A DNA stretch of 64,000 bases from the IMG/VR virus record IMGVR_UViG_3300042988_001200; one strand, written 5' to 3'. Below the pieces are notes generated by a model that worked only from the letters and a program-made list of their open reading frames with translations, did no database searches and was not told the origin of the DNA. Of this stretch, positions 30,084 to 49,631 are shown in pieces. This DNA is from a virus. Lineage: Duplodnaviria; Caudoviricetes. How positions within the stretch are numbered: position 1 is the stretch's first letter; each line of letters starts with the position of its first letter. A program made the translations under genes and the position numbers.

Positions 30084-30536
30084 ATGAAAGATTTAGCTTT
30101 AAAAGATGGAGATATAAGTCTAGGTGTAAGTGAGTTAGTTCAACAAGAGTATGGAACTAGGAGAGTAAAAGACCTTTTAGTTATAGATAAAGAGACAACT
30201 CTTAAGAGATTATTAAAAAGAGCTCTAATAACTCCTATTACTTATATAGGTAGAGAGGTAATTAATTATGATGAGGGTTCTGATAGGTTAGATTTATATT
30301 ATGGTAATGGATTATATCTAGAGTTATCTGAACCATTAACTCCTGAGTGGTTAGAAAGAGCCAATAGTCATATAAGAAAAGCTCTTGCATTTTTACCTCC
30401 CGATATTCAAGTAAATAATACTAAGGTAGATATTGTATCAGAGTCCTCTGTATCTATAGTAATAACATACACTTTTAATAATCAATTAATGACTATACAA
30501 GAACTTATAGATATAAATAATCTATCTATATCTTAA
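30084..30536 (+). CDS. Baseplate wedge gp25/gpW-like
   Basis: 'MKDLAL.DGDI', 'LYYGNGLYLELSEP' and beta-rich C-terminus; precedes gpJ; AGGAG SD present. Confidence 0.7.
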   Translation: MKDLALKDGDISLGVSELVQQEYGTRRVKDLLVIDKETTLKRLLKRALITPITYIGREVINYDEGSDRLDLYYGNGLYLELSEPLTPEWLERANSHIRKALAFLPPDIQVNNTKVDIVSESSVSIVITYTFNNQLMTIQELIDINNLSIS

Positions 30537-30542
30537 ATAAAT

Positions 30543-31598
30543 ATGATACCTAAGACTACAGAACAGATTATTCAATTATTTAGAAAGGAGTTATCTACCT
30601 CTGGCTCTGAACTAGCTAACTTCTATAGATATAGTAATCTTCATTTAATATATAGGTCTATAGCCTCTATACTCTCAGAACAGGATACAGATATAAAGAT
30701 AACAAAGGATACAGGGTTTATATCTACTAGTACCGGAGAGGATTTAGATTATATAGGTAGAGACTTTAGTGTTTATAGAGATGAAGGTAATAAGGCTAGA
30801 GGATATGTACTAGCATCCAACTCTTCTCTAATAGAGATACCTCCTGGCACTATATTAAACATTGCTTCTCAGGCTCTTCAATATGAGACCTTAGAAAGAA
30901 GGGTTCTATCAAATAACATACCTCAGAGTATACCTATAGTTTCTCTATCTAGTTCCTCTCTATATAACATTAGTGCTGGTACTGTTTTATATAACTCTAT
31001 ATTCCCCTCTACTTCCTTTATAGTAGGTAGATATTCCACTAATGGTAGATATTATCCAGACTTAGTAGGAGGCTCTGATTTAGAAGAGGATGACTCCTTT
31101 AGAGATAGGATTCTAAGAAAGATTGTAGGTACAGAGTTTGGTACTTATGGAGCTATATATGATGCTGTTAAATCCCTACCATTTATTAGCCAGGTAATAA
31201 TAAAGGATTCCCTTCCTGTACCTGGCTATTTTACAGTATATATAGATACAGCAGATACTGTAAATATAAATACAGTTAGAAGACTTGTTAATAATATTAA
31301 ACCTATAGGAGTGGGATTTGTTATTAGACCTATTCTCTATACAAGTTTCTCTATAGTAGCTAGAGTAAGGGTTAATAGAATAGAGGAGGGGGTTCTTAAT
31401 AATATAAAGACTAGAATAAGGGATTTAACTACAAATCTAAGGGTAGATGAACATTTATCTAGGGATTCTATTCTTGCATCTATTATGAGAGTTAATGGAG
31501 TTATATCTGTATCTTTAACCTCCCCTTCTGGAGATTTAATACCAGCCTCTCAACAGGTGGTATCTATAGATAATATCCAAATAGATTTATATGAATAA
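30543..31598 (+). CDS. Baseplate J-like wedge protein
   Basis: 'STGEDLDYIG...R..G.KARGYV', 'GGSDLEEDDSFRDRI', 'GTYGAI..AVKSLP'. Confidence 0.9.
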   Translation: MIPKTTEQIIQLFRKELSTSGSELANFYRYSNLHLIYRSIASILSEQDTDIKITKDTGFISTSTGEDLDYIGRDFSVYRDEGNKARGYVLASNSSLIEIPPGTILNIASQALQYETLERRVLSNNIPQSIPIVSLSSSSLYNISAGTVLYNSIFPSTSFIVGRYSTNGRYYPDLVGGSDLEEDDSFRDRILRKIVGTEFGTYGAIYDAVKSLPFISQVIIKDSLPVPGYFTVYIDTADTVNINTVRRLVNNIKPIGVGFVIRPILYTSFSIVARVRVNRIEEGVLNNIKTRIRDLTTNLRVDEHLSRDSILASIMRVNGVISVSLTSPSGDLIPASQQVVSIDNIQIDLYE

Positions 31599-31603
31599 AA
31601 TAT

Positions 31604-34600
31604 ATGCTTACTTGTATTGAAGCACTAGAGAAAATAAGTTCCCTATCTGGATTAGATTTAGATGAATCTATAGATATTTCAATAGAGTCTGGGAATCAGT
31701 ATAGTTCTATTAATTATATATCTGGTTATATCAAGGGATTAGATAATGGAACTTCCTTTTCTAATTATGAGAGTGGGGTATATGAGAAAGAATGTTCTAT
31801 ATCTACTGGTATGTGGGTATATAAAGATAAGGTAGTTACAGATAACTCCTGGTGTTTGAAAGACTGTTATGAGCCTTATACCCCTATATGTAAGACTAAG
31901 GAACCCATCTATATAGACTATATATATGAACCAGATGTCTTTGAATCCAACACTTATGAACAGAGGTTAATATATAAAGAATCTTTTAAACCCTGTGGAT
32001 GGGTAGATACTCCAGAACCATATATCCCTACTTATGAAATCTATAACTCTATATATGAACAAGGTAACTCTATCCTTAATCAATATTCAATCTCTAAAGG
32101 TTTAATCCCTATAGAGATATATGATAACTGCTATGAAACTTGTTATCAAACAGAGACTATAGAGTTAGATAGAGAGTATTCATTTGTTATAAATAAGTCC
32201 ACTTGCTATGAAGAGGGGGTCTATGAGAATTGTTATACAGAGGGTTATTTTGTATATTGGCAGACTTCTTTTATATATGAAGAATCCTGCTATGACTCTT
32301 GTACAGTTAATAGTTTATTTCCTTTATTCTTCTTTACTAGAAGACAGGATACATGGTTATTAGAAGATGTCTTTTGTAAGGATATAAATACACCTACTAG
32401 ATATATAGATAATGATGGTCATCTTATTAATATTGAAGTATCTAGTTGTATAGATAAAGAACCATTACTCTGGAATGATGATTTATTAATAGACCAAGAC
32501 TGGTTAGAGTCTGATGGTAGTAGCTGCTTTGATAACTGCTATGAAAAGAGATATTACTATTATGATGAGGATAGGTATGTATACCAAGAAGGAGTTTATG
32601 AAAGTGGTGTATATACTAAAAGAGCTCTTCTAATGTCTCTTCCCTTTATGGATGTCCAATGTCCAACCTGTAATATATCTTCTAATTGTTTAGTATCTTT
32701 CTTAGGGAATATTATTCTAGAGCATCATTATAATTTAGAGGTAAGGGGAATGACAAGAGTACAGGATTACTTATATAGTAAATCTAGACCTCTAGAGATA
32801 TTAGATTCTTGTTGTACTAGACCCTATGTAGTTAATGACCAGCTCGTAAGGATTAATGGAGATGTTATAGAGATATTCCAAGAGGGTTTATTAAAAGATG
32901 ATTATCTTTATTCATTAGATATTGGATACACTATAGAGAGTACCAATGAGTTTATCCCTATTCAATCTAATGTTCCTATATCCCTTAATGGTTTCTACTC
33001 TTTATCTAGCTATATACCAGAGGGGATTAAGACTTTAATTCTATATAAATCTAATTATTACTTTAAGAAGGAAGTAGTAAGATTCTATGGAGCTTCATCT
33101 TCTAATCAATTTCTTATTCAGGATTCTTTATCTTTATTTAATAGTGTAACTAATACAACTACTATTGAGGATATAAGTATATCTCTTATATTGTTACTAT
33201 TATCTTCTTATAAAGAGTCTAAACCTTGTTCTACAGTTATATCTTTTAAGTCTTTACATCCATATATAAAGTCAGTTATAGATAATAATCTAGACATTCT
33301 ATCTACATTAATTGATAACTCTAATGATAAAAGAAGGGGTTCTATACCTAAGCAAGTAAGGTCTAATACTAAGCCAGAACATATATATGATGATAGTTAT
33401 TATCTAGAAAAGAGGGTTATTACTTGTTATGAAGAGGGGGTTTATAGTAATAAATGCGACTTCTTATGGGATGAATCCTTGATTATTGGGGATGAAATGT
33501 ACTGTTTATCTAGTTGTTTTAAGGAATCTATACTGGATTTCTCTATTAATAGAGAGGTGGATAATAGGTCTATAGCCTGGTTATTACTTGCCTATCTAAC
33601 ATATACAGAGGTTATTAATACAAATAAATATCAGTCTTCTATTGATTTATTATATGAATATCTCATTTCAGAAATAGATTATACTAATAAATTTATATAT
33701 AAAGGTTACTCTCATTCTGATATATATAGTAATTCCACTAGGTTAGAACTGATAGATACTTCCACTAACATAGCTGTTTGTATAGCCCTACTAAAGCATT
33801 ATTCAGTAACATCTAACTCAATATCCCTACTTTATGCCTCTAAACTAAAGAGATATATCTATCAATACCTTTATTCTAGAGATGATAACTTATTCATGGA
33901 TGAAGGTTACTTTACTTTAGATAGTAATTTATATGGTCTATGGCTATCTTTAGAAGTTAATGAAGCCCCTGCTGTAGAGACTATATTAGACTTCTTTACA
34001 ACTAGTCTTAATGAAGTATCTACTAATGTATCTATAAAGATAGATACTATAGATAATGAAGATATTCTTTTATTAGATAACTCCTATATCTATACAAATA
34101 TAGAATCTATATCCTTAAGAAATAATATAAAGGTTAATAATCTTTTATACTATCTGTTTAACTACTCTTTACAACAAGGCTATACCCACTCCTTCTTTAT
34201 ATTTAAAGATACAAGTCTAGATAGTAATATAGGTATTGCTAGTTGTTTATCTGATAGTTTATTTGAACATGAGTTGTTTAGAACTTATGGATATGAAGAT
34301 ATAGAAGTTTTAGAGACTAGTGAAGCTCTAATAGAAAATAGATTAAGGGATATGATGCCTATAGGATTTGACTGGTTTAGTAGAGAATCTTTAACTAGAC
34401 AAGGAAATATAGGTAATCTCTTAGGCTCTGTAAGTGGAAGTTTAGCTCTTAATAATGTTTCTATAAAGAGAATAAAGGATTCTATATCTTTAACTAATAG
34501 TAGGACTTATTCTATTAAGAGATGGGAACAGGATTTGAAAATGGTTAGATGGGAGTCTGAGACCTATACAGAATACAAGGATAGAGTGAGAAAGTTTATA

Positions 34601-35128
34601 AATAAGCCGTATATTATAAATCAAGCTATTCCTTATTTATTAAGTTTATATAAAATTGATGTAAAAAAACAATGGGATTGGAGTAGTAATATTACAAATA
34701 AATATAATTCTTTGTTCTTCTCTACTTCTAATGCTTATATTCAAGAAACAGATACAGTTATTAACACTCATATACTAGTAGTTAATTTCCCTATAACTCC
34801 CTCTCTTTATAGGTCTATAGAAGAGGTTAAACCTATAGGAACAAAGGTTATATTTGATTGGCAGTTAGATATAGAAACTTGTTTAATAGAACAAGAGTTA
34901 GAACCCTCTATAGTAGACCTTTCTACTGTTCAGAGAATACCTTCTTATTTCATAAATGAAGTATGTTGTAGTAGTAATAGTTGTAGAGTCTTAATGAAGA
35001 TAGAACTAGAGTTTGCTGTTCCCTACCCTCTTTATTTAAATAAGGATTCTATTCTAGGTCTAGAACAAGAAAGTGATAATCTAACTATTATAAGGGCTAA
35101 TAATCTTTATAGTTATTTTTATAAGTAA
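31604..35128 (+). CDS. Baseplate wedge protein (gpI/gp7-like C-terminus) with Cys/Tyr/Glu repeats and helical-toroid-like domain
   Basis: Follows gpJ; C-terminal 'IKRWEQDLKMVRWESETYTEYKDRV...IEEVKPIGTKV'; repeated (C)YE(E/S)GVYE. Confidence 0.6.
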   Translation: MLTCIEALEKISSLSGLDLDESIDISIESGNQYSSINYISGYIKGLDNGTSFSNYESGVYEKECSISTGMWVYKDKVVTDNSWCLKDCYEPYTPICKTKEPIYIDYIYEPDVFESNTYEQRLIYKESFKPCGWVDTPEPYIPTYEIYNSIYEQGNSILNQYSISKGLIPIEIYDNCYETCYQTETIELDREYSFVINKSTCYEEGVYENCYTEGYFVYWQTSFIYEESCYDSCTVNSLFPLFFFTRRQDTWLLEDVFCKDINTPTRYIDNDGHLINIEVSSCIDKEPLLWNDDLLIDQDWLESDGSSCFDNCYEKRYYYYDEDRYVYQEGVYESGVYTKRALLMSLPFMDVQCPTCNISSNCLVSFLGNIILEHHYNLEVRGMTRVQDYLYSKSRPLEILDSCCTRPYVVNDQLVRINGDVIEIFQEGLLKDDYLYSLDIGYTIESTNEFIPIQSNVPISLNGFYSLSSYIPEGIKTLILYKSNYYFKKEVVRFYGASSSNQFLIQDSLSLFNSVTNTTTIEDISISLILLLLSSYKESKPCSTVISFKSLHPYIKSVIDNNLDILSTLIDNSNDKRRGSIPKQVRSNTKPEHIYDDSYYLEKRVITCYEEGVYSNKCDFLWDESLIIGDEMYCLSSCFKESILDFSINREVDNRSIAWLLLAYLTYTEVINTNKYQSSIDLLYEYLISEIDYTNKFIYKGYSHSDIYSNSTRLELIDTSTNIAVCIALLKHYSVTSNSISLLYASKLKRYIYQYLYSRDDNLFMDEGYFTLDSNLYGLWLSLEVNEAPAVETILDFFTTSLNEVSTNVSIKIDTIDNEDILLLDNSYIYTNIESISLRNNIKVNNLLYYLFNYSLQQGYTHSFFIFKDTSLDSNIGIASCLSDSLFEHELFRTYGYEDIEVLETSEALIENRLRDMMPIGFDWFSRESLTRQGNIGNLLGSVSGSLALNNVSIKRIKDSISLTNSRTYSIKRWEQDLKMVRWESETYTEYKDRVRKFINKPYIINQAIPYLLSLYKIDVKKQWDWSSNITNKYNSLFFSTSNAYIQETDTVINTHILVVNFPITPSLYRSIEEVKPIGTKVIFDWQLDIETCLIEQELEPSIVDLSTVQRIPSYFINEVCCSSNSCRVLMKIELEFAVPYPLYLNKDSILGLEQESDNLTIIRANNLYSYFYK

Positions 35129-35166
35129 TATTTATTTATAATATTATTAACCTATAAAAAGTTAAT

Positions 35167-36273
35167 ATGTTTGATTTAATAATTGTAGGGGCTGGACCTA
35201 GGGGTATAGGTTTAGCCCTTCAAGCTATAGAGAGAAGTTTATCTGTACTAATAATAGACCCAGAACCTTTATCTACTTGGAGGAATATCCCAATAGATAT
35301 AAATATGAGAAGTCCTATAGGATTTGATTTAGTATCCTTTATGCCAGAGTATAGACAATATAGTTTATCAACTTATCTAGGTTCTTATCAAGAGTTTAAT
35401 AATCAAGAGGATATAGAAAGGTCTACGAGTGTAGTAACTAGACAGCACTTTATTAACTATATGGAGTTTATGTGGAGTAGAGTTTTATCTATATGTAGTT
35501 ATAAACAGGACAAGGTTATTAACATATGGCCTAATAAAGTTATGACTACTAAGGAAGTATATAGAGGTAAGAATGTGGTTATAGCCTATTCCCCTATTAA
35601 GGCTAAGAACCCTAATTGGTTGAATCTAGAGTTAAAGAGAAAGCTAGTTACTGCTAAGGATATAGATTCTATAAATAACTCTCTTATCTGGGTTATAGGT
35701 AGTGGACAAAGTGCCGCAGAGTATGTTTATTCTTTATGTTCTAAAGGTAATACAGTCTATTGGTTTAATAAGAAAACTCCTAGAGTAGACCAGTACCCTG
35801 CGCCTAGTTATAATCATTGGGGTTATAAGAGTGCTCTAGGCCCTTACTATAGGAGTATTAAAGAGAATAAGGAGGCAGCTATGAGATATATGAAGGATAT
35901 AAAGAGATGGCAACCATCTATTACTCCAGATATAGATACTAAGTTATCTACAGTTAAAGATAGATATAAGGTTATACTAGATAACCCCTCTTCTATAGAG
36001 GTAAATATGGATTATATTTTTCTATGTAATGGAGTTAACTCTAGTGTTGATTTAGTACCATTAGCCTTACCAGTAGATAGACATATTTATAACAATGATT
36101 TACCTCTTTTACATACAGGATTTAGAAGCTCCTTATCTAACGAAAGGAGTGGAGGGAAGGGGGGTTATATCTTTACAGGGTTACTGGCTTCTTTATATGA
36201 TGGACCTAGGCAAGGAAGTTTAATCTCTATAGGGTTAACATCTAAAGAGATATTAGATAATATTAATTTATAA
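35167..36273 (+). CDS. FAD/NAD(P)H-dependent monooxygenase, lysine/ornithine N-monooxygenase (IucD/PvdA/SidA)-like
   Basis: GAGPRG FAD motif; 'W..IP...MRSP..FDLVSF.P.Y..YSLSTYL'; 'RQHFINYM'; second Rossmann motif 'VIGSGQSAAE'; 'IFLCNG'. Confidence 0.75.
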   Translation: MFDLIIVGAGPRGIGLALQAIERSLSVLIIDPEPLSTWRNIPIDINMRSPIGFDLVSFMPEYRQYSLSTYLGSYQEFNNQEDIERSTSVVTRQHFINYMEFMWSRVLSICSYKQDKVINIWPNKVMTTKEVYRGKNVVIAYSPIKAKNPNWLNLELKRKLVTAKDIDSINNSLIWVIGSGQSAAEYVYSLCSKGNTVYWFNKKTPRVDQYPAPSYNHWGYKSALGPYYRSIKENKEAAMRYMKDIKRWQPSITPDIDTKLSTVKDRYKVILDNPSSIEVNMDYIFLCNGVNSSVDLVPLALPVDRHIYNNDLPLLHTGFRSSLSNERSGGKGGYIFTGLLASLYDGPRQGSLISIGLTSKEILDNINL

Positions 36274-36277
36274 ATCT

Positions 36278-36781
36278 ATGGATAAGTATGAGTTTAACTT
36301 AAGAGATACTACCACTTATATATCTAGATATAAGAGGTTATTAGTTTATTTAGAGGGTTCCCCTAGTTTTTATATAGGAATAGGTTATTCTTCTGAGGCT
36401 AATAGTATTAACCCTTCTGAGAGTTTAGAGGATATAAAGGGGTTAATAGGTATAAGAAAGATTAATAAATTAATTCTAGTAAAAGAATCTTCCTGTGGTT
36501 CATATAAGATAAATAATAGATTATGGGAAGAGGATAATACTAAACCTACACATCTTTATATCAATGCTTTTATTAATAGAGATGACTTTAACTTCTCTTT
36601 CTTTAATATTATTGGTATTATAAGTAATCCTATTTTTAATGTAGAAAATAATAAGGATATCTATACTTCTTTAGAAGTTGTTAATCCAGGTATACTTCAT
36701 TGGGTGGCTTATATGACTACTATTTCTAGATTAGAAATAACTTATAAATTACCAGAACTTAATCTTTTAATTAAAATATAA
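36278..36781 (+). CDS. Probable baseplate wedge protein (gp8-like)
   Basis: 'SFYIGIG...P...IKGLIGIRKI' pattern; precedes DUF4815 gene. Confidence 0.45.
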   Translation: MDKYEFNLRDTTTYISRYKRLLVYLEGSPSFYIGIGYSSEANSINPSESLEDIKGLIGIRKINKLILVKESSCGSYKINNRLWEEDNTKPTHLYINAFINRDDFNFSFFNIIGIISNPIFNVENNKDIYTSLEVVNPGILHWVAYMTTISRLEITYKLPELNLLIKI

Positions 36782-36783
36782 TT

Positions 36784-39700
36784 ATGAACTTATATAAGTA
36801 TAAAGAGAACTCTTTATATAAAGATAGATTTACTCCTGATTCTAATTGGTTAAAGGTTCTATTTACTCCTGGAAGACCTGTTCAAAGTGCTGAACTTATA
36901 GAGCTTCAATCTATTATTAGACATAGTTATAAGCTAGGGATGGATAAGGTTCTAGGAGCTTTATCTATAGTTCAAGGTCTGAACTATACTCTTTCTATAG
37001 AGGAAGACACCACTTTTATATCTATATCAGAAGGAATAATATATACAGAAGGCTCTTTTATACCAGTTAAATCTAAGGATTTAGAGTTTAGTCTTAATGA
37101 AGAGGTCTCTATTGGAGTTTTATTAAATGAAGTTATTATTACAGAGAATGAAGATAACTCTCTTAAATCTAACCATCCTTATGGTTTACCAGGAGCCCAT
37201 AGACTAGTTTGGGAAGGAGATATCACTCTTAATAATCCCTTATCCTTTGAGATATATAGATATGAGAAGGGAGAAATAATTCAATCTAATAATTATCCCT
37301 TTAAAGAATTACTATCTGAGATATCTACTTTTATAGATTCTATATATGGTTCCTTCCTTTTATATGGATTAAAAACCTCTTTTATCTCTACACAAGAACC
37401 CTTATCTGAATCTATTACTGTAGATAACTCTAGCCTTATATCTGATATAAACTCGATTGAATCTCAAATATCCTCTTTGAAGATAAGGAAGAGAGACCTG
37501 GAATCCTCTATTAATCAACTAATATCAAGTAACTTATCTAGTAATTTAATCCTAGCTGAGACCTATATTCAACAACTAAGAGAGGCTAATCAAGAAGAAA
37601 CTACCCTTTCTAACTCTCTATTAGAAAAGAGAATAGCTTTATCTAGATTAATAGAGCGTAATCCTATTAACTCTAGGAGTATAGTTAATTTATCTATTAG
37701 TCCAGGTTCAGCTTTTGTAAAAGGATATAAAACTATTAAACCATACCCATCCCTTATTCAATATCCTTATTCTATAGAGACTAAAGAGGTTAAAGGAGCT
37801 AGGTTTATTAATAGCTCAACCTATATTCCATCTAAGTTATCTCTTATACCTTCTATAGATTATGCAACTATAAAGGCAGCTTCTATTAATATATCTATTA
37901 AGTTTAATCAAATTATATTTAATAATCAGCTTGTAGATGTTGTTATACAAGCAAATACATCTTCTTTTTTATCTATAGAAGATATTATTAATAGCATAAG
38001 TGCTTTTGAATTAAGCTCTTTAACCCTTACTTCTACAGTATTGAATCAGGCTAATATTTCCTTATCTCCTATAGAAATAAAACAATTATTATCTCTTAAC
38101 TTTAATATTACAAAGACTAACTCTAATTCTATAACTATTCAAATAAAGGATTCAAGCTCTAGAACTTCTATTAGATTAGATACTTATTCTAGTTCTCAGT
38201 ATTTATCTTGGAGTCAATCTACTAGTTTTAGTTCTATTAGTAATATAAATAGATATCTATTACCTAGTGTAAATGTTAGTAAGATAACTAGAATAGTAGG
38301 AGAGTTAAAAGCTGATGGCTATAGATTAACTAGAGGGGAGTCTAATAGAGATTTTCTAGGAGAGGATTCTATATTCTCTTTACTATTAGTTTATCAGGAT
38401 AATACTATTTATATTCCAGGAGTGGATTATCGATTAGATACTCAACAATATATTAATTGGATAGGTAATAAACCTCAACCCGGAGATTCTTATTATGTAA
38501 ATTATATGTATACAGAAGAATTATCAAAAGATGAGTATTCTATATCTAATAATGAAATATTAATTAATATCCCTATTCCCCCCGGTTATGGGTTTGAAGT
38601 AGATTATCTCTATTCCATAGATAAGAAACTAACTGTAACTATAGATACTAATTCAGATATAGAAATCTATGAGACTTCTATACCGGAAGGGGTTCTCTCT
38701 CTATCTAATGTCTATATAAAAGGGAAGGAAGTAGAAGTAGTTGAACTAGATAATAAAATTCCTTCTCTATCAGATATATATTTATTATCTCAACAAGTAG
38801 ACCAACATACTAATCTTCTTAATACTCTTTTATCTAATCAAGAACAATATCTTGATAATCAAGAGAATAACCTATTGGCAACTTGGAATATAGATTTATC
38901 TACTTTTAATGATATTGATATAGATTTAACTACAGGGGCTATAGATGTATTTATTAAATCTTTTAATCCTTCATTTAGAACAAAAGAGATATCTATATTA
39001 GCTAATGACTGTTACAAGGATAAATTAAATCTATGTAAGTTCTACACTTTACCTTTTATATCTATACCTTTTATATCTAATAATAGAGCTACTAGGTATA
39101 TATCTAGTTATGGCTATAGTAATATATCTACTTATATTTATCCAGCTTTTCTATGGGCTAATAATGATAGTTCTTATCCTTATCTTGCTAATAATGAAAA
39201 TGTAGAGGGGGAAATAACCTGTTCTATATATAAGGAAATGAATGAAATATTAGATTCTATAGATAGTAAATACTCTGTAGATACTTATAATCCTTTAGGT
39301 AATATAGTTCCAATAGAGTATACCTTTTACCTTTTAGTAGAAGGCTTATTAACATATGAAGATGGAATAACTATTCTTTTTGATTCTAAATCTATACCTT
39401 CTATTAATCTTATTAAAGGTTCTGTAATTAATAATATATTAAGAGCTGATGTTAATGGCGTTATATACCTATCTTTACTTATATCTATACCCCAGCCTGG
39501 TAATTATTTAATATCTATATTTAACTCTAGATTTAATAAATCTATTAATTTACCTATATACAATAGTTATGAGTTACCTATATATAACAATTTAAGTAAG
39601 TATGATTATAGAAGTAGAAAGAGAGAGATAGAAATTAATAATGAGGGAGTTACTACTTCTTTTAGTGCTATAAATCAATACTTTAATACAACTAGGGACT

Positions 39701-40689
39701 TCTTTATAACTAAACTAGAACTTAGATTAAGAGAAATTGGTAACAATAATTTAATAGTTGGTATAGATAAACTAGGTCTAAATAGTATTCCAGAATTAAG
39801 GTTAGTGGAATCTAAACCTAATGATTATTATTACTCAAACGACTCTTCTGCTATTACAACTACAGAATTTCTATATCCTACTTTGATAAATAAAGGAGAT
39901 TATTCTATTGGAATAGATGGAGAAGAATATAAATTATACGCTTCTTTTAATCAAGAGAAGGATTATCTTACTGGTTCTTTATTTAACTCCTATAGTTTAT
40001 TATCTCAAGATAGGTTATTTATTAGTAAAGATGGTAAATCTACTAGTGAATTATTATATACTAATCTCTCTTATCAAATATATAGAGCCGAGTTTATAGT
40101 AGGTTCTAGTGTATATATTCCTTTAGGGGTCTACGGTTTATCTAATGGATTTACTAATATAAGTCATTTTTCTTATAATACTAAGGATATAGTACCCCCA
40201 GGAACCCTTATTCAATATGAATATAAAACAAGTTCAGATTGGATTCCCTTTAAATCTAATACTATAACTAGACTTATTTCCATAGCTCCTTCTATAGAGT
40301 TAAGAGTTTTAATTAATTCATCTTCTTCCTTTGTATCTCCAATAGTAAATATAGAAGGTTCTACTATAGCTTTATACTCCGATAATTCTACTTATAAGTT
40401 ATATACAGAGAGCAAATCCTTTCCCTTTACCTTTAATAAAGTTGTAGTTAAAGTAGATATATATAACAAGAAGGATGAAGATACTTTATCTTTATATAAC
40501 TTAAAGACATTAAATAATGAGATTCAGTCTCTTCAATTTGTATCTTCTATTAATAGAAATACCTATATAACCAGTGAGTATAAGCTGGAACAAGGTTCTT
40601 TAGATACTCTAAATCTAGTTTTTGATTGTTATTCCCCTGGTATTGATAAGTTAATCCTAAGAAATATAAGAGTATATATATATGGATAA
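36784..40689 (+). CDS. DUF4815-family virion/baseplate protein
   Basis: 'YKDRFTPDSNWLKVLFTPGRPVQSAELIELQSII' matches the DUF4815 N-terminal motif. Confidence 0.75.
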   Translation: MNLYKYKENSLYKDRFTPDSNWLKVLFTPGRPVQSAELIELQSIIRHSYKLGMDKVLGALSIVQGLNYTLSIEEDTTFISISEGIIYTEGSFIPVKSKDLEFSLNEEVSIGVLLNEVIITENEDNSLKSNHPYGLPGAHRLVWEGDITLNNPLSFEIYRYEKGEIIQSNNYPFKELLSEISTFIDSIYGSFLLYGLKTSFISTQEPLSESITVDNSSLISDINSIESQISSLKIRKRDLESSINQLISSNLSSNLILAETYIQQLREANQEETTLSNSLLEKRIALSRLIERNPINSRSIVNLSISPGSAFVKGYKTIKPYPSLIQYPYSIETKEVKGARFINSSTYIPSKLSLIPSIDYATIKAASINISIKFNQIIFNNQLVDVVIQANTSSFLSIEDIINSISAFELSSLTLTSTVLNQANISLSPIEIKQLLSLNFNITKTNSNSITIQIKDSSSRTSIRLDTYSSSQYLSWSQSTSFSSISNINRYLLPSVNVSKITRIVGELKADGYRLTRGESNRDFLGEDSIFSLLLVYQDNTIYIPGVDYRLDTQQYINWIGNKPQPGDSYYVNYMYTEELSKDEYSISNNEILINIPIPPGYGFEVDYLYSIDKKLTVTIDTNSDIEIYETSIPEGVLSLSNVYIKGKEVEVVELDNKIPSLSDIYLLSQQVDQHTNLLNTLLSNQEQYLDNQENNLLATWNIDLSTFNDIDIDLTTGAIDVFIKSFNPSFRTKEISILANDCYKDKLNLCKFYTLPFISIPFISNNRATRYISSYGYSNISTYIYPAFLWANNDSSYPYLANNENVEGEITCSIYKEMNEILDSIDSKYSVDTYNPLGNIVPIEYTFYLLVEGLLTYEDGITILFDSKSIPSINLIKGSVINNILRADVNGVIYLSLLISIPQPGNYLISIFNSRFNKSINLPIYNSYELPIYNNLSKYDYRSRKREIEINNEGVTTSFSAINQYFNTTRDFFITKLELRLREIGNNNLIVGIDKLGLNSIPELRLVESKPNDYYYSNDSSAITTTEFLYPTLINKGDYSIGIDGEEYKLYASFNQEKDYLTGSLFNSYSLLSQDRLFISKDGKSTSELLYTNLSYQIYRAEFIVGSSVYIPLGVYGLSNGFTNISHFSYNTKDIVPPGTLIQYEYKTSSDWIPFKSNTITRLISIAPSIELRVLINSSSSFVSPIVNIEGSTIALYSDNSTYKLYTESKSFPFTFNKVVVKVDIYNKKDEDTLSLYNLKTLNNEIQSLQFVSSINRNTYITSEYKLEQGSLDTLNLVFDCYSPGIDKLILRNIRVYIYG

Positions 40690-42928
40690 TAAAATATTGT
40701 TCCAAGAAGGTACTAGTTTAACTTTTCTAAATAGGGTTCAAGATACTTTGAATCAAGACCTTTATACTCTTTTTAATACTCTATACTCTGTTTTCTTATA
40801 TATAAATAAACCTTTAGTTGTTATAGAAGAAGATAAAGGAAGAGTCTTTGTATCCTCTGGTTCTATTTATATCTATCTAGATAAGGGTTATTTTATTAAC
40901 TTCCCCTCTTCTTATATACCTATAAGATCTAATAACTTTATTATTGGGTTATCTATTAGAACTATAGAAGAACCTAGTGGGGACCCTCAATTAGAAGATA
41001 TACCCCTTTCCTCTGTTCTAGGTTCATCTAAATTAGTTATTGAATCCACCGTTTCATCCTTTCAATCTTCTAATGATGTTATTCCAATAGCCTTTATAGA
41101 AGATAATAAAGTTGTTTATATTCCTAATAGATACTCTAATATTCAATCTACTATTTATGAATATTGGAGTTCTATTTTTGGATTATATATATCTAAGGGA
41201 TTCTATTACTCAATTATTGATAATAAAATAAAGATTTCTCCTGGGTTGGCATATATAAATCAATTAGTTATAGTAAGAGTTCCCACTATATTAGAGTTAA
41301 AACCTGGGAATATTATGTTAAACTCTCTAGGTGATATTTATTATGAAGAGCCTGTTACTATACCTTTATCGGATATCTCTTATATATATTCAGACTTAGA
41401 TGAGGTTATAGATAATGATTATAATTCTTTAATAGAAGTAGATGTATCTTCCTTTAGTTATATAAGTGAACCATTATCTATACCTTTATTTAATATAGAT
41501 ACTAATTTAAATATAATTCCCACTTCTAATAGAGTTATAGACATTAAAACTCTTAAGGAGAATATAAATATTAATACTCAATTAATAAGTAAATATCTAA
41601 ATCTTTTATCTATAACTAGACAAATAAGTATTAAAAAAAGTAATTTAATAGTAGAGAGTTCTATTAAGGATACTAATAGTGACCCTTTCCATCCAGAATC
41701 TAAGTTTGAAATATCTAATAACCAGGCTATTCCTACTATAGATTATGAGAGTTTTAGTCTAACTTCCTTTGTTTCTATTAATACCTTTAGGTCTAATGGT
41801 TGGATAATACCTCTGCATAGTAAGGATGATTCTATATCTAAACCTAAACAAGAGGAGTTAATTCTTCCACCTTTATCTAGATTTCTACTTGTATATATAA
41901 GAGGATTAGATATAAATCTTGGTTTATATCAATTAGAAATTGTATCTACTCATAGTATTCAACTAGATAGAACTCTTGTTCAATCTCTTAATATAGGTCT
42001 TTATACCTCAATAAATACTTATAGTCCAGATGAGAGAGGTAGATTATCTATAACTATAAAGACTCAACTAGCTTATATAAAGATTAATTCTTACATATTA
42101 GAGTTAGATACAGAGCATCATCTATTAGAAAAGCAGGGTGAGGTTATATTAAAACAGATACAAGGTATAGTTTCTAGTACAGAGGATTACTGCTGGATTA
42201 CTAATAATAAAGACACTTTAGTTCCATTATCTATTAATCTAATAGGTTTTTTAAGTAAGGTTATAGATAGTAATAGTAGTTTATTTATAGTTAAATACAC
42301 TTTATTTAACCAAATAGCTATAGATAAGTTCACCTCTATAAGTGATAACTATTATATTCATGGTTCTAGATTAACTCTTTATGCTAATAAAGGAATTAAT
42401 ATAGATTACTCAACAGTTAGATTACCAATATCTAATACTAAGTTATATATAGATATTAATAGAGAATATGAAGTTAACTATACTAATTGGAATATAAATA
42501 AAGAGGGTTCTCTTATTTATAGGTACTTAATTGATGGCAAAGAAGTCCTTTCTATAGATAATAAGAGAAGGTTTAGAGCTGAAATAGAGATAAAACCCTT
42601 TGCTATTGTTAAGGAAAATTCTACTTTTAATATAGGTCAGACTAATGGAATTGGTATTTATATATCCAGAACTTATAGTGTAGAGATATATAAACAAGTA
42701 GAAGTTATATTAGAAGGTCTTGTATCTAATGCTTATATAAGTAGTAATGAGGGTCAAACCTGGGATGAGATGTTAACTATAGATAATAAAACCTTTAGTA
42801 TTGATAATCTCCCCCCTTTAGTTAATATAGAAAGAGGGGATGGAACTATAGAAGTCCTAGAGAGAAATACCATTAAGTTAAAGATAGAGATGACTAATCT
42901 TAAAGGTTTCTCTATATATCTATATTAG
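40682..42928 (+). CDS. Tail/baseplate structural protein (possible DUF4815-related)
   Basis: 'KILFQEG..LTFLNRVQD', 'IKISPGLAYIN' motifs echo the upstream protein. Confidence 0.5.
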   Translation: MDNKILFQEGTSLTFLNRVQDTLNQDLYTLFNTLYSVFLYINKPLVVIEEDKGRVFVSSGSIYIYLDKGYFINFPSSYIPIRSNNFIIGLSIRTIEEPSGDPQLEDIPLSSVLGSSKLVIESTVSSFQSSNDVIPIAFIEDNKVVYIPNRYSNIQSTIYEYWSSIFGLYISKGFYYSIIDNKIKISPGLAYINQLVIVRVPTILELKPGNIMLNSLGDIYYEEPVTIPLSDISYIYSDLDEVIDNDYNSLIEVDVSSFSYISEPLSIPLFNIDTNLNIIPTSNRVIDIKTLKENININTQLISKYLNLLSITRQISIKKSNLIVESSIKDTNSDPFHPESKFEISNNQAIPTIDYESFSLTSFVSINTFRSNGWIIPLHSKDDSISKPKQEELILPPLSRFLLVYIRGLDINLGLYQLEIVSTHSIQLDRTLVQSLNIGLYTSINTYSPDERGRLSITIKTQLAYIKINSYILELDTEHHLLEKQGEVILKQIQGIVSSTEDYCWITNNKDTLVPLSINLIGFLSKVIDSNSSLFIVKYTLFNQIAIDKFTSISDNYYIHGSRLTLYANKGINIDYSTVRLPISNTKLYIDINREYEVNYTNWNINKEGSLIYRYLIDGKEVLSIDNKRRFRAEIEIKPFAIVKENSTFNIGQTNGIGIYISRTYSVEIYKQVEVILEGLVSNAYISSNEGQTWDEMLTIDNKTFSIDNLPPLVNIERGDGTIEVLERNTIKLKIEMTNLKGFSIYLY

Positions 42929-46097: not shown

Positions 46098-49000
46098 ATG
46101 AATACAAGAATAGCAGTTAATATATTAAAACCCTTTAGACATATCTATGGTAATAAAGATGTTCAGATGAAGGAAGGACAAGTCTATTACTTAGATATTA
46201 GTAAGCCTGATGATAAGAATGAGCTTATATATATGATGGGTGGTAGTTTTCCTTATAGATTCTTTATTTCTATAGATATAACTCCAGAGTTACTAGATTT
46301 ACTTAATGACTCTAAATTTGATGTCTATTCCGTTCCTCCATCAGCTCCAGTTCAAGGTCAAACCTACTTTAATGATGTAAGTGGTATTCCCTATATCTAT
46401 AATGGTAGTTCTTGGACGCCTATGACTGGTAGTGGAGGAGGGGGTGGAGGCACACCCACTGTAGTCCCTGCATTATTTGGAGATGTAACTTCCGATGGTT
46501 ATAGTAATAATGTACAGATAGTACCAGGGGTTATTACAGATGCTGATATTAGCCCTACAGCAGGTATTCAACTTAGTAAACTAGCTACTAATCCTTTAGA
46601 TAGAACTAATCATACAGGTACTCAATTAGCTTCTACTATATCTAATTTTATTCCAACTGTTCAAACAGTTCCAGTTAACCAATTAGCTCCTGCTACTGGT
46701 AACTTGAATATGAATAACTATAGGATTATTAACCTTGCTAATCCTATATCTGGTTCTGATGCAGCTAATAAACAATATGTAGATTCAGCTATAGCTGCTG
46801 TAGGGTTCACCTCCCCATTACCTCTTAATAAGGGTGGTACAGGGGTAGCTGCTACTACTGGAGTAGAGGCTCTTAACGCATTAGAAGGTGTATACTCTGG
46901 TAGAAATTTACCTGTTAGTGGCACTCCTCCTCTTAATAGTGGTAGAGTTTTTGCTCAGAAAAGTACAGGTACAGGTTCTACACCCTCTTATCTAGACTTT
47001 AGAAGAATAGTTGTTACAGCTCCATTAAGTATTATAGAGAGTGCTGATGCAATTACTATTGGCTTTACTGCAGGAGGGGGTACTACTTTAGATATAAACA
47101 CAGCTTTAAGTGGTTATCCTTTATCTATAGTTAATGGCGGTACGGGTGCTACTACAGCTACTAACGCTAGAGTTAATCTAGGGGCAGTAGGTAGAGGGGA
47201 GAACTCATTAGCACCTAGCACTACAGTAGGTAATGTGTTTAGAGATGTTGTTAATAGTGGTGGAGACATTACTATGAGATTTAACTCTCTTAGTGAAGTT
47301 CCTCTTGGAGGTATTGATATTAATGAAACAGGTGGGGTCATTCAACTATCTGTTAGACAATCAGACCTCTCCTTAGCTAATATTGGGGGTTCTATTGACC
47401 TTACTAGTAGTCAGGTTACAGGGGTACTACCTATAGCTAAAGGAGGTACTGGGGCTACTACTATTAGTGGTGCTAGAGATAATCTTAATGTTGTTTATGA
47501 TGCCAGACTTATTACTGGGGCTACTGGTCAATCAGTATTATCCACTCCTGCTGTAGTTCAACAAATAGGGGATGGGGGCATTATTAATATGAAAGGGATT
47601 ATTGCTGGTAGTAATATTACTATTACCAGTAGTGGTACAGATTTAACCATTAATTCAACTGCCACTTCTACTATCACAGCAGCTAACCTAGGTACAGGTG
47701 ATGGTAAACCCTATCATAGTGTTACTGGTACTACTCTTAACTTTAGATCAGTACAAGAAGGAATGGGTATAGATGTTGTTAATAGCATTAATGATATAGT
47801 TGTTAATCTAAGATCTTCATATATTGGTACTACTGGAGCTAGAATAGCTAACTTACCATTAGCAGCTAGCTCTCCTCTAGAGTTTAGAACCCTTCTTCAG
47901 GGAACTGGTATTACTATTACAGAGAACACTAATGACATCACCATTAGTTCTACTGGAGCTTCTACTGTATTTAATGTAGGTGGGAAGCCTGGACAGGTAT
48001 ATAGAGACCTACTTAATGGGATTCTTAATCTTAGAACTATAGGTGGAGCTACTGGAACTATTAACCAGGATGGTCTCCTAGTAACAACTGTAGGAGATGA
48101 AATTCATATTCAATCTAATATAGTAGATGCTGCTTCATTAGCTACTGGACAACATATCCTAACTAACACCACCCCCATTACTACTACTGGTAACACTCTT
48201 AACTTTAAAGGTGTACTAGCTGGTAAGGGTGTCTCTCTAGCCTCTTCCACTGGTACTGATGTAGTTATAGATGCTTTATTAGCTTCTGTAGGTCCAGGTG
48301 TACCCACCCTAGTATCAGCTAGCCCTGCTGTTGGAGCCCCTTATCAATTAAAGACTGTACAAGCAGGTACTGGTATTACTGTTACAGATAATGGAACTTC
48401 TATTACCATAGCTTCTAGTAGTACAGCTATTACTGGGGATTATGGGTTATTACTAACTGGTTCTGCTATGAAGGTAGAGGCAGTTAATCTAGGGGGTCAA
48501 CAAGTTGTATTAGCCAACCCCACTGGTGGTATTAATGACCCAATGAACTTTAAAGGGTTAACAGCAGGTAAAGGGACATCCCTAGCTCTATCTACTGGTA
48601 CAGAGATTATTATAGATACCCTTATAGCTTCTATAGGCTCTGGACAAACTCTATTAGGTACAGCTCCTACTAATGGTCAGCCCTTTAACTTTAAGTCTCT
48701 ATTAGCGGGTACTGGTATTACATTAACCCCTGCTGCTGACTCTATTACTATAAGTTCTAGTGCCCCCACTGGAGCTGTTAATGTAGGTACTGGTCAACAG
48801 GTCTATAAAGCTCTTAATGCTGGTGTCCTAGAGTTTAGAACTATTCTAGGGGATTATGGTATTAATGCTACTACTGTAGGGGATACTGTTAATATTGCTG
48901 CTCATGCAGAGAACTTACCTGGTGCTGGTCAATTAGTTCTATCTACTGCTAGTCAGGGTAGTGCTGACCCATTAAGATTTAAGAACATTACTCCTGCTCC

Positions 49001-49631
49001 TACTAACCCAGGTATTAGTGTTACTGCTGATGTAAATAACATCTTCCTCCAAGCTCATGTAAGTGGAGTAGCTCAAGTAGGGACTGGTGTATCATTAACT
49101 ACATCTGTTCTACCTTTAACCCCTGGTTCTATCCTTAATCTAAGAACTGTTCTAGGTGGATATGGTATTAATGCGGCTCCCTCTACTTCTACTAATGAAG
49201 TTCTAATCTCAGCCCATGCAGAGAATATTGGTACTGGTGTAAATGTTTTATCTAATCCTACATCTACTACAGATACGGACCCAATGAAGTTTAGAAAGAT
49301 TTTAGCGGGTCCTTCTGGAAGCATAACAGTAAATGTAGTTACAGATGATATTGTTATTGATTCTACTGGAACTGGTATTGGATACTCTACATCTGCTGCT
49401 CTTGCTCCTGTAAGTAATTTAGGTATCCATAGATGGACAGTTACTCATAATCTGGGTTTACCCTCACCCTTTACTCAATTTACATTCTCAGCTTATGATT
49501 CAGTAACTGGAGATTATATAGTAATGGATAATATTACAGGAGTAGATGGTAACACTGCTGTTTTTACTATAGTAACAGGTGGTGCTTCTCCATCCACAAG
49601 CACTCATTTCCGTATTACTAAAGCTCTATAA
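46098..49631 (+). CDS. Fibre protein 2 (paralog of fibre 1)
   Basis: Same N-terminal domain and 'NPLDRTNHTGTQ'; many 'L.F(R/K).l.aG.Gi.it' repeats; C-terminal 'VTHNLG' domain. Confidence 0.8.
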   Translation: MNTRIAVNILKPFRHIYGNKDVQMKEGQVYYLDISKPDDKNELIYMMGGSFPYRFFISIDITPELLDLLNDSKFDVYSVPPSAPVQGQTYFNDVSGIPYIYNGSSWTPMTGSGGGGGGTPTVVPALFGDVTSDGYSNNVQIVPGVITDADISPTAGIQLSKLATNPLDRTNHTGTQLASTISNFIPTVQTVPVNQLAPATGNLNMNNYRIINLANPISGSDAANKQYVDSAIAAVGFTSPLPLNKGGTGVAATTGVEALNALEGVYSGRNLPVSGTPPLNSGRVFAQKSTGTGSTPSYLDFRRIVVTAPLSIIESADAITIGFTAGGGTTLDINTALSGYPLSIVNGGTGATTATNARVNLGAVGRGENSLAPSTTVGNVFRDVVNSGGDITMRFNSLSEVPLGGIDINETGGVIQLSVRQSDLSLANIGGSIDLTSSQVTGVLPIAKGGTGATTISGARDNLNVVYDARLITGATGQSVLSTPAVVQQIGDGGIINMKGIIAGSNITITSSGTDLTINSTATSTITAANLGTGDGKPYHSVTGTTLNFRSVQEGMGIDVVNSINDIVVNLRSSYIGTTGARIANLPLAASSPLEFRTLLQGTGITITENTNDITISSTGASTVFNVGGKPGQVYRDLLNGILNLRTIGGATGTINQDGLLVTTVGDEIHIQSNIVDAASLATGQHILTNTTPITTTGNTLNFKGVLAGKGVSLASSTGTDVVIDALLASVGPGVPTLVSASPAVGAPYQLKTVQAGTGITVTDNGTSITIASSSTAITGDYGLLLTGSAMKVEAVNLGGQQVVLANPTGGINDPMNFKGLTAGKGTSLALSTGTEIIIDTLIASIGSGQTLLGTAPTNGQPFNFKSLLAGTGITLTPAADSITISSSAPTGAVNVGTGQQVYKALNAGVLEFRTILGDYGINATTVGDTVNIAAHAENLPGAGQLVLSTASQGSADPLRFKNITPAPTNPGISVTADVNNIFLQAHVSGVAQVGTGVSLTTSVLPLTPGSILNLRTVLGGYGINAAPSTSTNEVLISAHAENIGTGVNVLSNPTSTTDTDPMKFRKILAGPSGSITVNVVTDDIVIDSTGTGIGYSTSAALAPVSNLGIHRWTVTHNLGLPSPFTQFTFSAYDSVTGDYIVMDNITGVDGNTAVFTIVTGGASPSTSTHFRITKAL

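Follow-up and report, generated by a model that had tools for sequence, protein, structure and literature searches.

Why should a gene whose product resembles the N-hydroxylases of siderophore synthesis lie within the baseplate operon of a cyanophage? The question is raised by a stretch of viral DNA of 64,000 nucleotides (hereafter the window), which corresponds to bases 19823-83822 of the 171.9-kb IMG/VR record IMGVR_UViG_3300042988_001200. The completeness of this record is estimated at 89%, and its source phage is an uncultured relative of the Microcystis phage Ma-LMM01. The gene in question, P0001 (35167..36273, + strand), is an open reading frame of 368 codons from ATG to stop; its 368-aa product is a flavoprotein with the fold of the N-hydroxylating monooxygenases (NMOs) and belongs to the Ma-LMM01 gp106/PHROG 29209 family. 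Here we put forward, at a probability of about 0.45, the view that the product of this gene derives from an NMO and serves at the baseplate, in its structure or in its assembly, and that in this phage it probably still binds its cofactors and is possibly catalytic. Among the evidence for this view are the constancy of the gene's position among the baseplate genes of related phages and the persistence in that same position of family members that have lost the sites needed for catalysis.

The position was examined by calling open reading frames in 27 related loci, which represent ~17 lineages, and by searching them with iterated profiles of the baseplate proteins of the window; four loci were added for the distant members of the family. 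The gene order in the related loci is a gp25-like gene, a Baseplate J gene, a gene for a large wedge protein, up to four variable genes, the flavoprotein gene, a gene for a connector of the BW3TFN type and the genes for two large proteins of the DUF4815 type. The flavoprotein gene is present in all 27 related loci, and its slot is invariant across the ~17 lineages at 25-40% identity. In 15 of the ~17 lineages the connector is the gene directly 3' of it. In most lineages the connector gene starts within the end of the flavoprotein gene, the two overlapping by 1-26 nt; in three more, the window among them, they are separated by a gap of 4-6 nt. Linkage to the wedge genes, whose conservation had been set beforehand as a test in the initial annotation (a reading of the sequence made without database searches), was found in every relative with usable context. 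P0001 itself lies on the same strand as its flanking baseplate genes, 38 nt from the upstream and 4 nt from the downstream one. The common codon style that had also been remarked upon is borne out by a GC content of 0.33 and by a codon-usage correlation with the neighbors of 0.89, the neighbors' own range being 0.76-0.96. In the RNA-seq analysis of Ma-LMM01 infection, gp106 has its expression subclass (cluster 2/B5) and its time course in common with nearly all of gp099-gp110 (PMC5780444, supplementary file 4); the opposite-strand gp104 was assigned to B3 (PMC5780444).

Such constancy bears on the idea that P0001 is an auxiliary metabolic gene that merely rides in a morphogenesis operon and whose product, a small-molecule N-hydroxylase, would act on a diamine or an amino acid of the host's metabolism. 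The homologs in Ma-LMM01, MaMV-DC and MaMV-DH01 are so annotated by homology, and the best sequence matches of P0001 in the PDB are diamine hydroxylases (DfoA, E 3e-16; FbsI, 2.4e-14). Auxiliary genes usually move or drop out, however, whereas this slot does not vary; moreover, members that have become pseudoenzymes are retained, and no cellular genome has a member of the family outside prophage-like regions such as that of Calothrix. Pathway partners are also lacking. The initial annotation had stated that no NRPS, NIS synthetase or acyltransferase accompanies the gene, and this can be extended to the whole 171.9-kb record for the last two, from which PF04183 and PF13523 (IucA/IucC and IucB-type) are absent, NRPS domains not having been searched separately. 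Taken together, the conserved linkage to the wedge genes and the missing siderophore partner genes make a baseplate-related role much likelier than that of an ordinary iron-metabolism gene, and we consider the auxiliary metabolic explanation decidedly improbable. The suggestion that the gene encodes a DNA-modification enzyme was dropped as unsupported, as neither the neighboring genes nor the fold point to nucleic acid.

A closely comparable module exists in which the flavoprotein is missing. The DUF4815 N-terminal domain is found by tblastn in 780 phage records, mostly of the Herelleviridae, compared with only 10 of 50,697 phage records that contain a homolog of the flavoprotein (eight records of Microcystis phages of the Ma-LMM01/MaMV type, MaMV-DH01, and the Microcoleus phage My-WqHQDG). 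In the Staphylococcus phage A3R, BmpA, BmpB, TmpF, BmpC and TmpG occur in the same order with nothing between TmpF and BmpC, and four of these five are annotated virion components (the nomenclature of the Kayvirus baseplate genes is given in PMC10811340 and PMC11406892). The segment BmpB-TmpF-BmpC-TmpG of A511 and the Kayviruses (phage K, A3R) thus has the gene order of the cyanophage module and homologous connector and DUF4815 proteins, and it differs in having no gene between TmpF and BmpC. Because the Kayvirus module does without it, the flavoprotein is a lineage-specific addition that was made exactly at the junction between wedge and connector. In A511, gp105 anchors the receptor-binding proteins and gp106 constitutes the second baseplate layer (PMC11406892; PMC10811340). 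It may be remarked separately that the order of the genes in 30084-42928, together with the homologies of the DUF4815 and BW3TFN proteins, assigns the baseplate of the Ma-LMM01-like phage to the type of A511 and phage K (Herelleviridae), whereas papers call Ma-LMM01 T4-like.

If the slot is so constant, is it the chemistry of the enzyme that has been conserved there? The motifs were tabulated for 87 family representatives, and the 83 full-length ones were compared. In 76 of the 83, the motifs GxGPRx, Asp31, (M/L)RSP, FDL and GSGQxxAE are essentially unchanged at an overall identity of 35-40%. The other seven (P0085, P0087-P0090, P0092 and P0093), about 8% of the family clusters, have lost FAD, NADPH and active-site residues. 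The positions that the family has in common with the NMOs (G10, W38, L55, R92, G142, G180, Q181, E185 and G289) are mostly gone from these degenerate members. The second glycine of the FAD motif (G10) has become Asn or Ser in six of them and is kept in one, the NADPH motif reads GSEEEH, GSNDYQ, GTDEYQ and similar, and the Pfam oxidoreductase match is absent in six of the seven. What they keep is a different set of residues: G338, D345, G346, R348, Q349, S351, S354 and T358, together with W218, P250 and P254. The structural model of the degenerate P0085 (pLDDT 92.2), in whose alignment intact relatives were included, has the NMO fold (Z 28.5 with KtzI). Each of the four degenerate members with usable context is located in the same slot, 5' of the connector and of a DUF4815 protein.

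The cellular NMOs have the very motifs that the intact members have, and hence loss of these motifs is the sole sensible direction of change. In a FastTree phylogeny rooted on the NMOs, six of the seven degenerate members are nested within the family, with support of 0.78-0.86. The seven are mutually 20-45% identical, a divergence that points to their having persisted over a long time. A slot that is still occupied long after the cofactor sites have been lost implies a non-catalytic job in that slot; to judge from these sequences, the core role shared by the family must be one that does not need catalysis. Such a role was not among the options offered by the initial annotation.

In the great majority of the family the cofactor sites nonetheless persist, and the ancestry that they reveal is clear. 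The FAD-binding GxGxxG motif of P0001 reads GAGPRG (residues 8-13; 35188..35205, +), and its G8 and G10 are found in 76/76 intact representatives and 9/9 NMO outgroups. The NADPH-binding motif GSGQSAAE (residues 178-185; 35698..35721, +) is identical to the consensus of nine aligned classical NMOs, and the other NMO motifs ('W', 'R..F..Y' and 'TG') are present in the family as well. The Pfam models Pyr_redox_3 (52.8 bits, E 4.5e-14) and Lys_Orn_oxgnase (PF13434, 46.2 bits against a cut-off of 21.3, the match being limited to residues 1-196) both exceed their gathering cut-offs. A comparison by hhalign of the family profile with that of 74 classical NMOs extends over the full length (residues 1-368; probability 99.9, E 3.5e-30). 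The AlphaFold2 model of P0001, made from an alignment of 22 homologs (pLDDT 91.5, pTM 0.89), has only NMOs as its top Foldseek matches (SidA, PvdA, KtzI, DesB and FbsI, E 1e-13 to 1e-16). An exhaustive comparison with VIA-align gave Z scores of 29.2 for DesB (338 aligned residues, rmsd 3.0), 28.2 for SidA, 26.2 for a Lys 6-monooxygenase and 24.6 for NbtG, the best proteins other than NMOs being SMFMO (23.8) and Bdr (23.3). Motifs, Pfam match and predicted fold thus all uphold the likeness to IucD and PvdA that had first drawn attention to the gene. The class B NMOs (SidA, PvdA, the IucD type, DesB, DfoA, FbsI and KtzI) and the P0001 family accordingly have in common a two-Rossmann fold and homology over the full length, and the P0001 model matches the three-domain fold of the NMOs with the small substrate domain shortened.

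Two other identities were considered for the fold. The small bacterial type II FMO, ArsO-like and YpdA/Bdr-like proteins (~320-370 aa) are similar to P0001 in length, and their sequence and structure matches are weaker than those of the NMOs (in the PDB profile search, 4usq had E 3.4e-7 and DfoA 3e-16). Disulfide-reductase chemistry of the thioredoxin-reductase kind was ruled out, since the family alignment has no invariant Cys and the structural similarity is lower. Among the weakest word-based matches are cellular ArsO-like flavoproteins of ~360 aa with ~25% identity; one relative, in Paenibacillus sp. GXUN7292 (L112, 8001-9110; 26% identity, E 7.8e-5), is located beside a MarR regulator in an arsenic-resistance island (ArsB, ArsP and LMWPc).

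The substrate side of the protein differs from that of the NMOs. The stretch MRSPIGFDL (residues 47-55; 35305..35331, +) is the counterpart of the NMO active-site strand 'LQ(V/T)PF..DL', and the NMO pattern 'LQ(V/T/I)(P/S)F..(K/A)DL' is not matched by the family, which reads MRSPxxFDL. Alignments to DfoA, FbsI and DesB show that R48 takes the place of the NMO Gln and F53 that of Lys or Ala, and both replacements are found in every intact member. In SidA, the Lys at the position equivalent to F53 binds the carboxylate of the amino acid; in the NMOs the strand has the Gln together with Lys (for amino-acid substrates) or Ala (for diamines). The family is ~70 aa shorter than the NMOs, chiefly in the helical insert that follows the NADPH domain, as the gap pattern of the hhalign comparison indicates. 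In place of the NMOs' larger substrate-binding insert there is a remodeled helical subdomain (residues ~205-262, YPxPS..W..KS and WQPSITP; 35779..35952, +), in which W218, P250, I252 and P254 are conserved, family-specific residues that are kept even in the degenerate members. Near the C-terminus is a second family-specific element, the motif G..A...DGPRQGS..S...T (residues 338-358; 36178..36240, +), which is missing from the NMOs except for G346 and is kept in 71-100% of the degenerate members. Before it lies a nine-residue insertion (residues 322-330; 36130..36156, +) at whose positions 92-99% of the 76 intact representatives have no residue and which is modeled with low confidence (pLDDT <50 at 327-330).

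To judge from the alignment, purifying selection acts strongly on the cofactor (FAD and NADPH) and active-site motifs of most members, P0001 among them, and P0001 therefore probably still binds both cofactors. This pattern would fit a soluble enzyme which acts during assembly and remains outside the virion, carrying out an FAD-, NADPH- and O2-dependent oxidation, N-hydroxylation for example, of Lys or other amines on baseplate or fiber proteins, with the degenerate copies as leftover chaperone-like binders. The NMO-type cofactor and active-site motifs intact in 76 of 83 representatives are in its favor, as are the co-transcription and translational coupling with baseplate genes and the remodeled substrate region, where the Lys-to-Phe and Gln-to-Arg changes fit a new substrate that is not an amino acid. 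It accounts poorly for the seven lineages that retain the protein without its cofactor sites, and the adjacent connector shows no invariant Lys. We know of no flavin N-hydroxylase that acts on protein side chains. On balance an enzyme confined to assembly seems rather unlikely. Still less can be said for a flavin sensor, in which FAD and NADPH bound in the baseplate would report redox state or blue light and so gate fiber deployment or adsorption. Such a sensor would account for conserved cofactor sites in combination with a structural position; the loss of those sites in some members would, however, abolish sensing, no photoreceptor-type features were seen, though none were searched for, and the idea is pure speculation to which we attach hardly any weight.

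Iron offers another possible use for an enzyme of this ancestry. The "Ferrojan horse" hypothesis is already in the literature (10.1101/674382), and in a version adapted to this locus, the enzyme would make hydroxamate-type iron ligands, either on tail proteins or on a polyamine bound to the virion, by which the particle would bind Fe and engage the TonB-dependent receptors for hydroxamates. The NMO ancestry of the protein and the location of its gene among those of distal baseplate proteins would suit such siderophore mimicry. A hydroxamate, however, requires N-acylation after N-hydroxylation, and the record is without an acyltransferase of the IucB type; no iron-related gene is conserved in the module; and the members without cofactor sites keep the slot. 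The initial annotation had proposed that the adjacent protein with Cys/Glu/Tyr repeats (of the YEEGVYE type) was the enzyme's partner, an idea that fails because the repeat is found in this phage alone, whereas the flavoprotein gene is present in all 27 related loci. The functional link between the flavoprotein and the repeat was consequently dropped, and siderophore mimicry as such is very unlikely. In a bolder proposal the protein, present in stoichiometric amount and carrying FAD, would be part of the periphery of the baseplate and would either N-hydroxylate amines of tail-fiber-network proteins into iron-binding groups or serve as a flavin redox or light sensor gating adsorption. Though we consider it quite unlikely, the proposal would, if true, mean that a redox flavoenzyme had for the first time been shown to form part of a phage tail and, in its iron-binding version, that the Ferrojan horse idea had gained its first basis in an enzyme.

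The baseplate-associated protein that we favor may be pictured as follows. The gene encodes a descendant of an NMO that is now a constant element among the baseplate genes of the Ma-LMM01-like cyanophages, and its product would be made together with the wedge and tail-fiber-network proteins. It would act physically at the periphery of the wedge, as a structural component or an assembly factor, beside the gp8/gp105-like connector, and docking would probably involve the motif near the C-terminus that is peculiar to the family, along with the residues retained in the remodeled helical subdomain. During the intracellular assembly of the baseplate, where NADPH and O2 are present, an amine on a partner protein or on a bound ligand may be oxidized. 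The pseudoenzyme members imply that such chemistry is not the whole of the function. A complex prediction for the flavoprotein with the connector (alignments A3 and A2) scored 0.00, a value that counts neither for nor against binding.

Several observations weigh against this reading. The cofactor motifs are near-perfectly conserved in ~90% of the members, from which it follows that catalysis or cofactor binding matters in most lineages and that a purely structural reading would be too narrow. Baseplates of the A511/K type assemble without a protein of this kind, and two of the cyanophage lineages (L006 and L013) have no connector downstream of theirs. The tree in which the degenerate members are nested is only moderately supported, and P0001 itself has Ser142 where 97% of its intact relatives and 9/9 aligned NMOs carry Gly. 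Fused, longer forms of the protein (645-2000 aa) were sought in what was a weak search, and none was found. Lastly, the literature yielded no virion proteome or baseplate structure for phages of the Ma-LMM01 type; it is because virion presence is inferred that we have not placed our confidence any higher.

Some details of these exceptions may be added here. In L006 (10001-21095) and L013, unrelated small proteins come after the intact flavoprotein, and the place of the connector and the DUF4815 proteins is taken by giant fiber proteins that contain Toxin_R_bind_N, Laminin_G_3 and F5/8 type C domains. The 217-aa protein 3' of the flavoprotein in L006 was considered as a diverged connector and ruled out (hhalign probability 0.2; no Pfam match). 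The serine at residue 142 (35590-35592) is found both in P0001 and in its closest relative, P0002.

How widely is this protein distributed? An exhaustive HMMER scan of 1.84 billion cluster representatives returned 60 proteins at E <=1e-10, nearly all of them 320-383 aa in length; below the family hits, whose E values are 1e-12 or better, the significance drops sharply, to E >=1e-7, where other proteins, several of them longer, appear. The identity of P0001 to the family members is 35-69%. It matches PHROG 29209 ("unknown function") at E 3.3e-48 and is 35% identical to Ma-LMM01 gp106 (YP_851120) over 98% of its length, and with P0001 no NCBIfam model reaches its cut-off. A scan of species-representative bacterial genomes, swamped by classical NMOs that also have GSGQSAAE, contained no true family member; these NMOs were used as the outgroup for the profile comparison and the tree. 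The one cellular record with a family member is a contig of Calothrix sp. FACHB-1219, where it falls within a 71-kb region designated as a provirus by IMG/VR. That contig (L004/L027, JACJQF010000002.1, bases 3950-25059) contains the whole module from gp25 to DUF4815 along with an intact flavoprotein. This might mean that temperate phages exist among the relatives of the group, which otherwise looks lytic, or that a prophage has the tail module in common with it. In contrast to the NMOs, the P0001 family is encoded in phage tail modules only, and its neighbors are all tail genes, with no genes for siderophores or other natural products among them.

Ma-LMM01 gp106, its homologs in MaMV-DC and MaMV-DH01, and WOL31317 of My-WqHQDG, the only members of the family that bear a name, have the same slot 5' of the BW3TFN connector and the DUF4815 proteins; Ma-LMM01 differs in having three extra genes between the large wedge protein and gp106, and these proteins are 337 aa long. 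In GenBank, Ma-LMM01 gp106 has been labeled a "putative lysine/ornithine N-monooxygenase" since 2008, and others a "pyridine nucleotide-disulfide oxidoreductase". The literature provided no text in which the function of the gp106 family is discussed, the lone mention being an abbreviation on a map in one preprint. To our knowledge, the separateness of the family from the NMOs, its fixed position in a baseplate of the A511 type and its cofactor-less members have not been described previously.

Recruitment of an enzyme fold for morphogenesis is not without parallels. The GMC oxidoreductases of mimivirus (qu_946/qu_143, R135) build both the genomic fiber and the surface fibrils with FAD still bound (PMC9512402; PMC11042495). 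They resemble the role proposed here in that an FAD-dependent fold has been recruited as a virion building block and its FAD retained; they differ in flavoenzyme superfamily, in virus realm and in the structure that is built, and incorporation into the virion is proven for them and inferred for P0001. The tail of T4 provides a second parallel, this time of concept, in an enzyme with another, morphogenetic role at the junction of baseplate and fiber. The T4 gp63 protein is an RNA ligase that also promotes the attachment of the tail fibers, and old reports put dihydrofolate reductase in the T4 baseplate, a claim that is not known to be borne out by the modern baseplate structures. Unlike P0001, both have unrelated folds and genes that lie outside the wedge operon.

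Phage baseplates have been thought of as purely mechanical devices, equipped at most with cell-wall hydrolases. A redox-enzyme fold in a single slot of the wedge operon across bloom-relevant cyanophages (of Microcystis and Microcoleus, and in the Calothrix provirus) would enlarge their repertoire by a component of a new kind, whether the protein turns out to be a building block that bears a cofactor, to modify tail proteins during assembly or to act as a sensor. An annotation that implies siderophore metabolism is thereby corrected. The co-existence of intact and naturally "dead" versions in one genomic slot provides a ready comparison by which a structural role can be separated from a catalytic one, and as Ma-LMM01 and MaMV-DC can be cultured, the question is directly testable.

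The genes that surround P0001 in the window are all on the + strand. Upstream are a gp25-like wedge protein (30084..30536), whose match to PF04965 (E 2.5e-4) is below the Pfam cut-off and whose position is kept in all the loci, and a Baseplate J-like wedge protein of the T4 gp6 type (30543..31598; PF04865, E 2.5e-14). These are followed by the large wedge protein of 1174 aa (31604..35128), which gave zero matches in the Pfam scan and is assigned to the position of T4 gp7 and Kayvirus TmpF by gene order and by homology to the equivalents in relatives. Immediately 3' of P0001 is the gp8/A511 gp105-like BW3TFN connector of 167 aa (36278..36781), which just exceeds the cut-off of PF25691 (27.5 bits against 27) and matches PHROG 1394, "virion structural protein". 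Next come the DUF4815 tail-fiber-network protein of 1301 aa, which resembles A511 gp106 and Kayvirus TmpG (36784..40689; PF16075, E 1.2e-44), and a second distal baseplate or fiber protein of 748 aa (40682..42928), whose start overlaps the DUF4815 gene by 8 nt and whose position is conserved in the related loci (jackhmmer).

Two minor features of the tail region remain to be recorded. The large wedge protein (31604-35128, +) has four Y(E/Q)(E/S)GVY repeats, at residues 55, 202, 327 and 609, that are often flanked by Cys; the repeat is found in none of the equivalent proteins of the 27 related loci, the only other occurrence being a single, unrelated match in L010. Further downstream, a tail-region protein of 1177 aa (46098-49631, +) has a faint, sub-threshold match (E 0.003; 17.7 bits against a cut-off of 28.4) to STN, the short N-terminal domain of secretins and TonB receptors.

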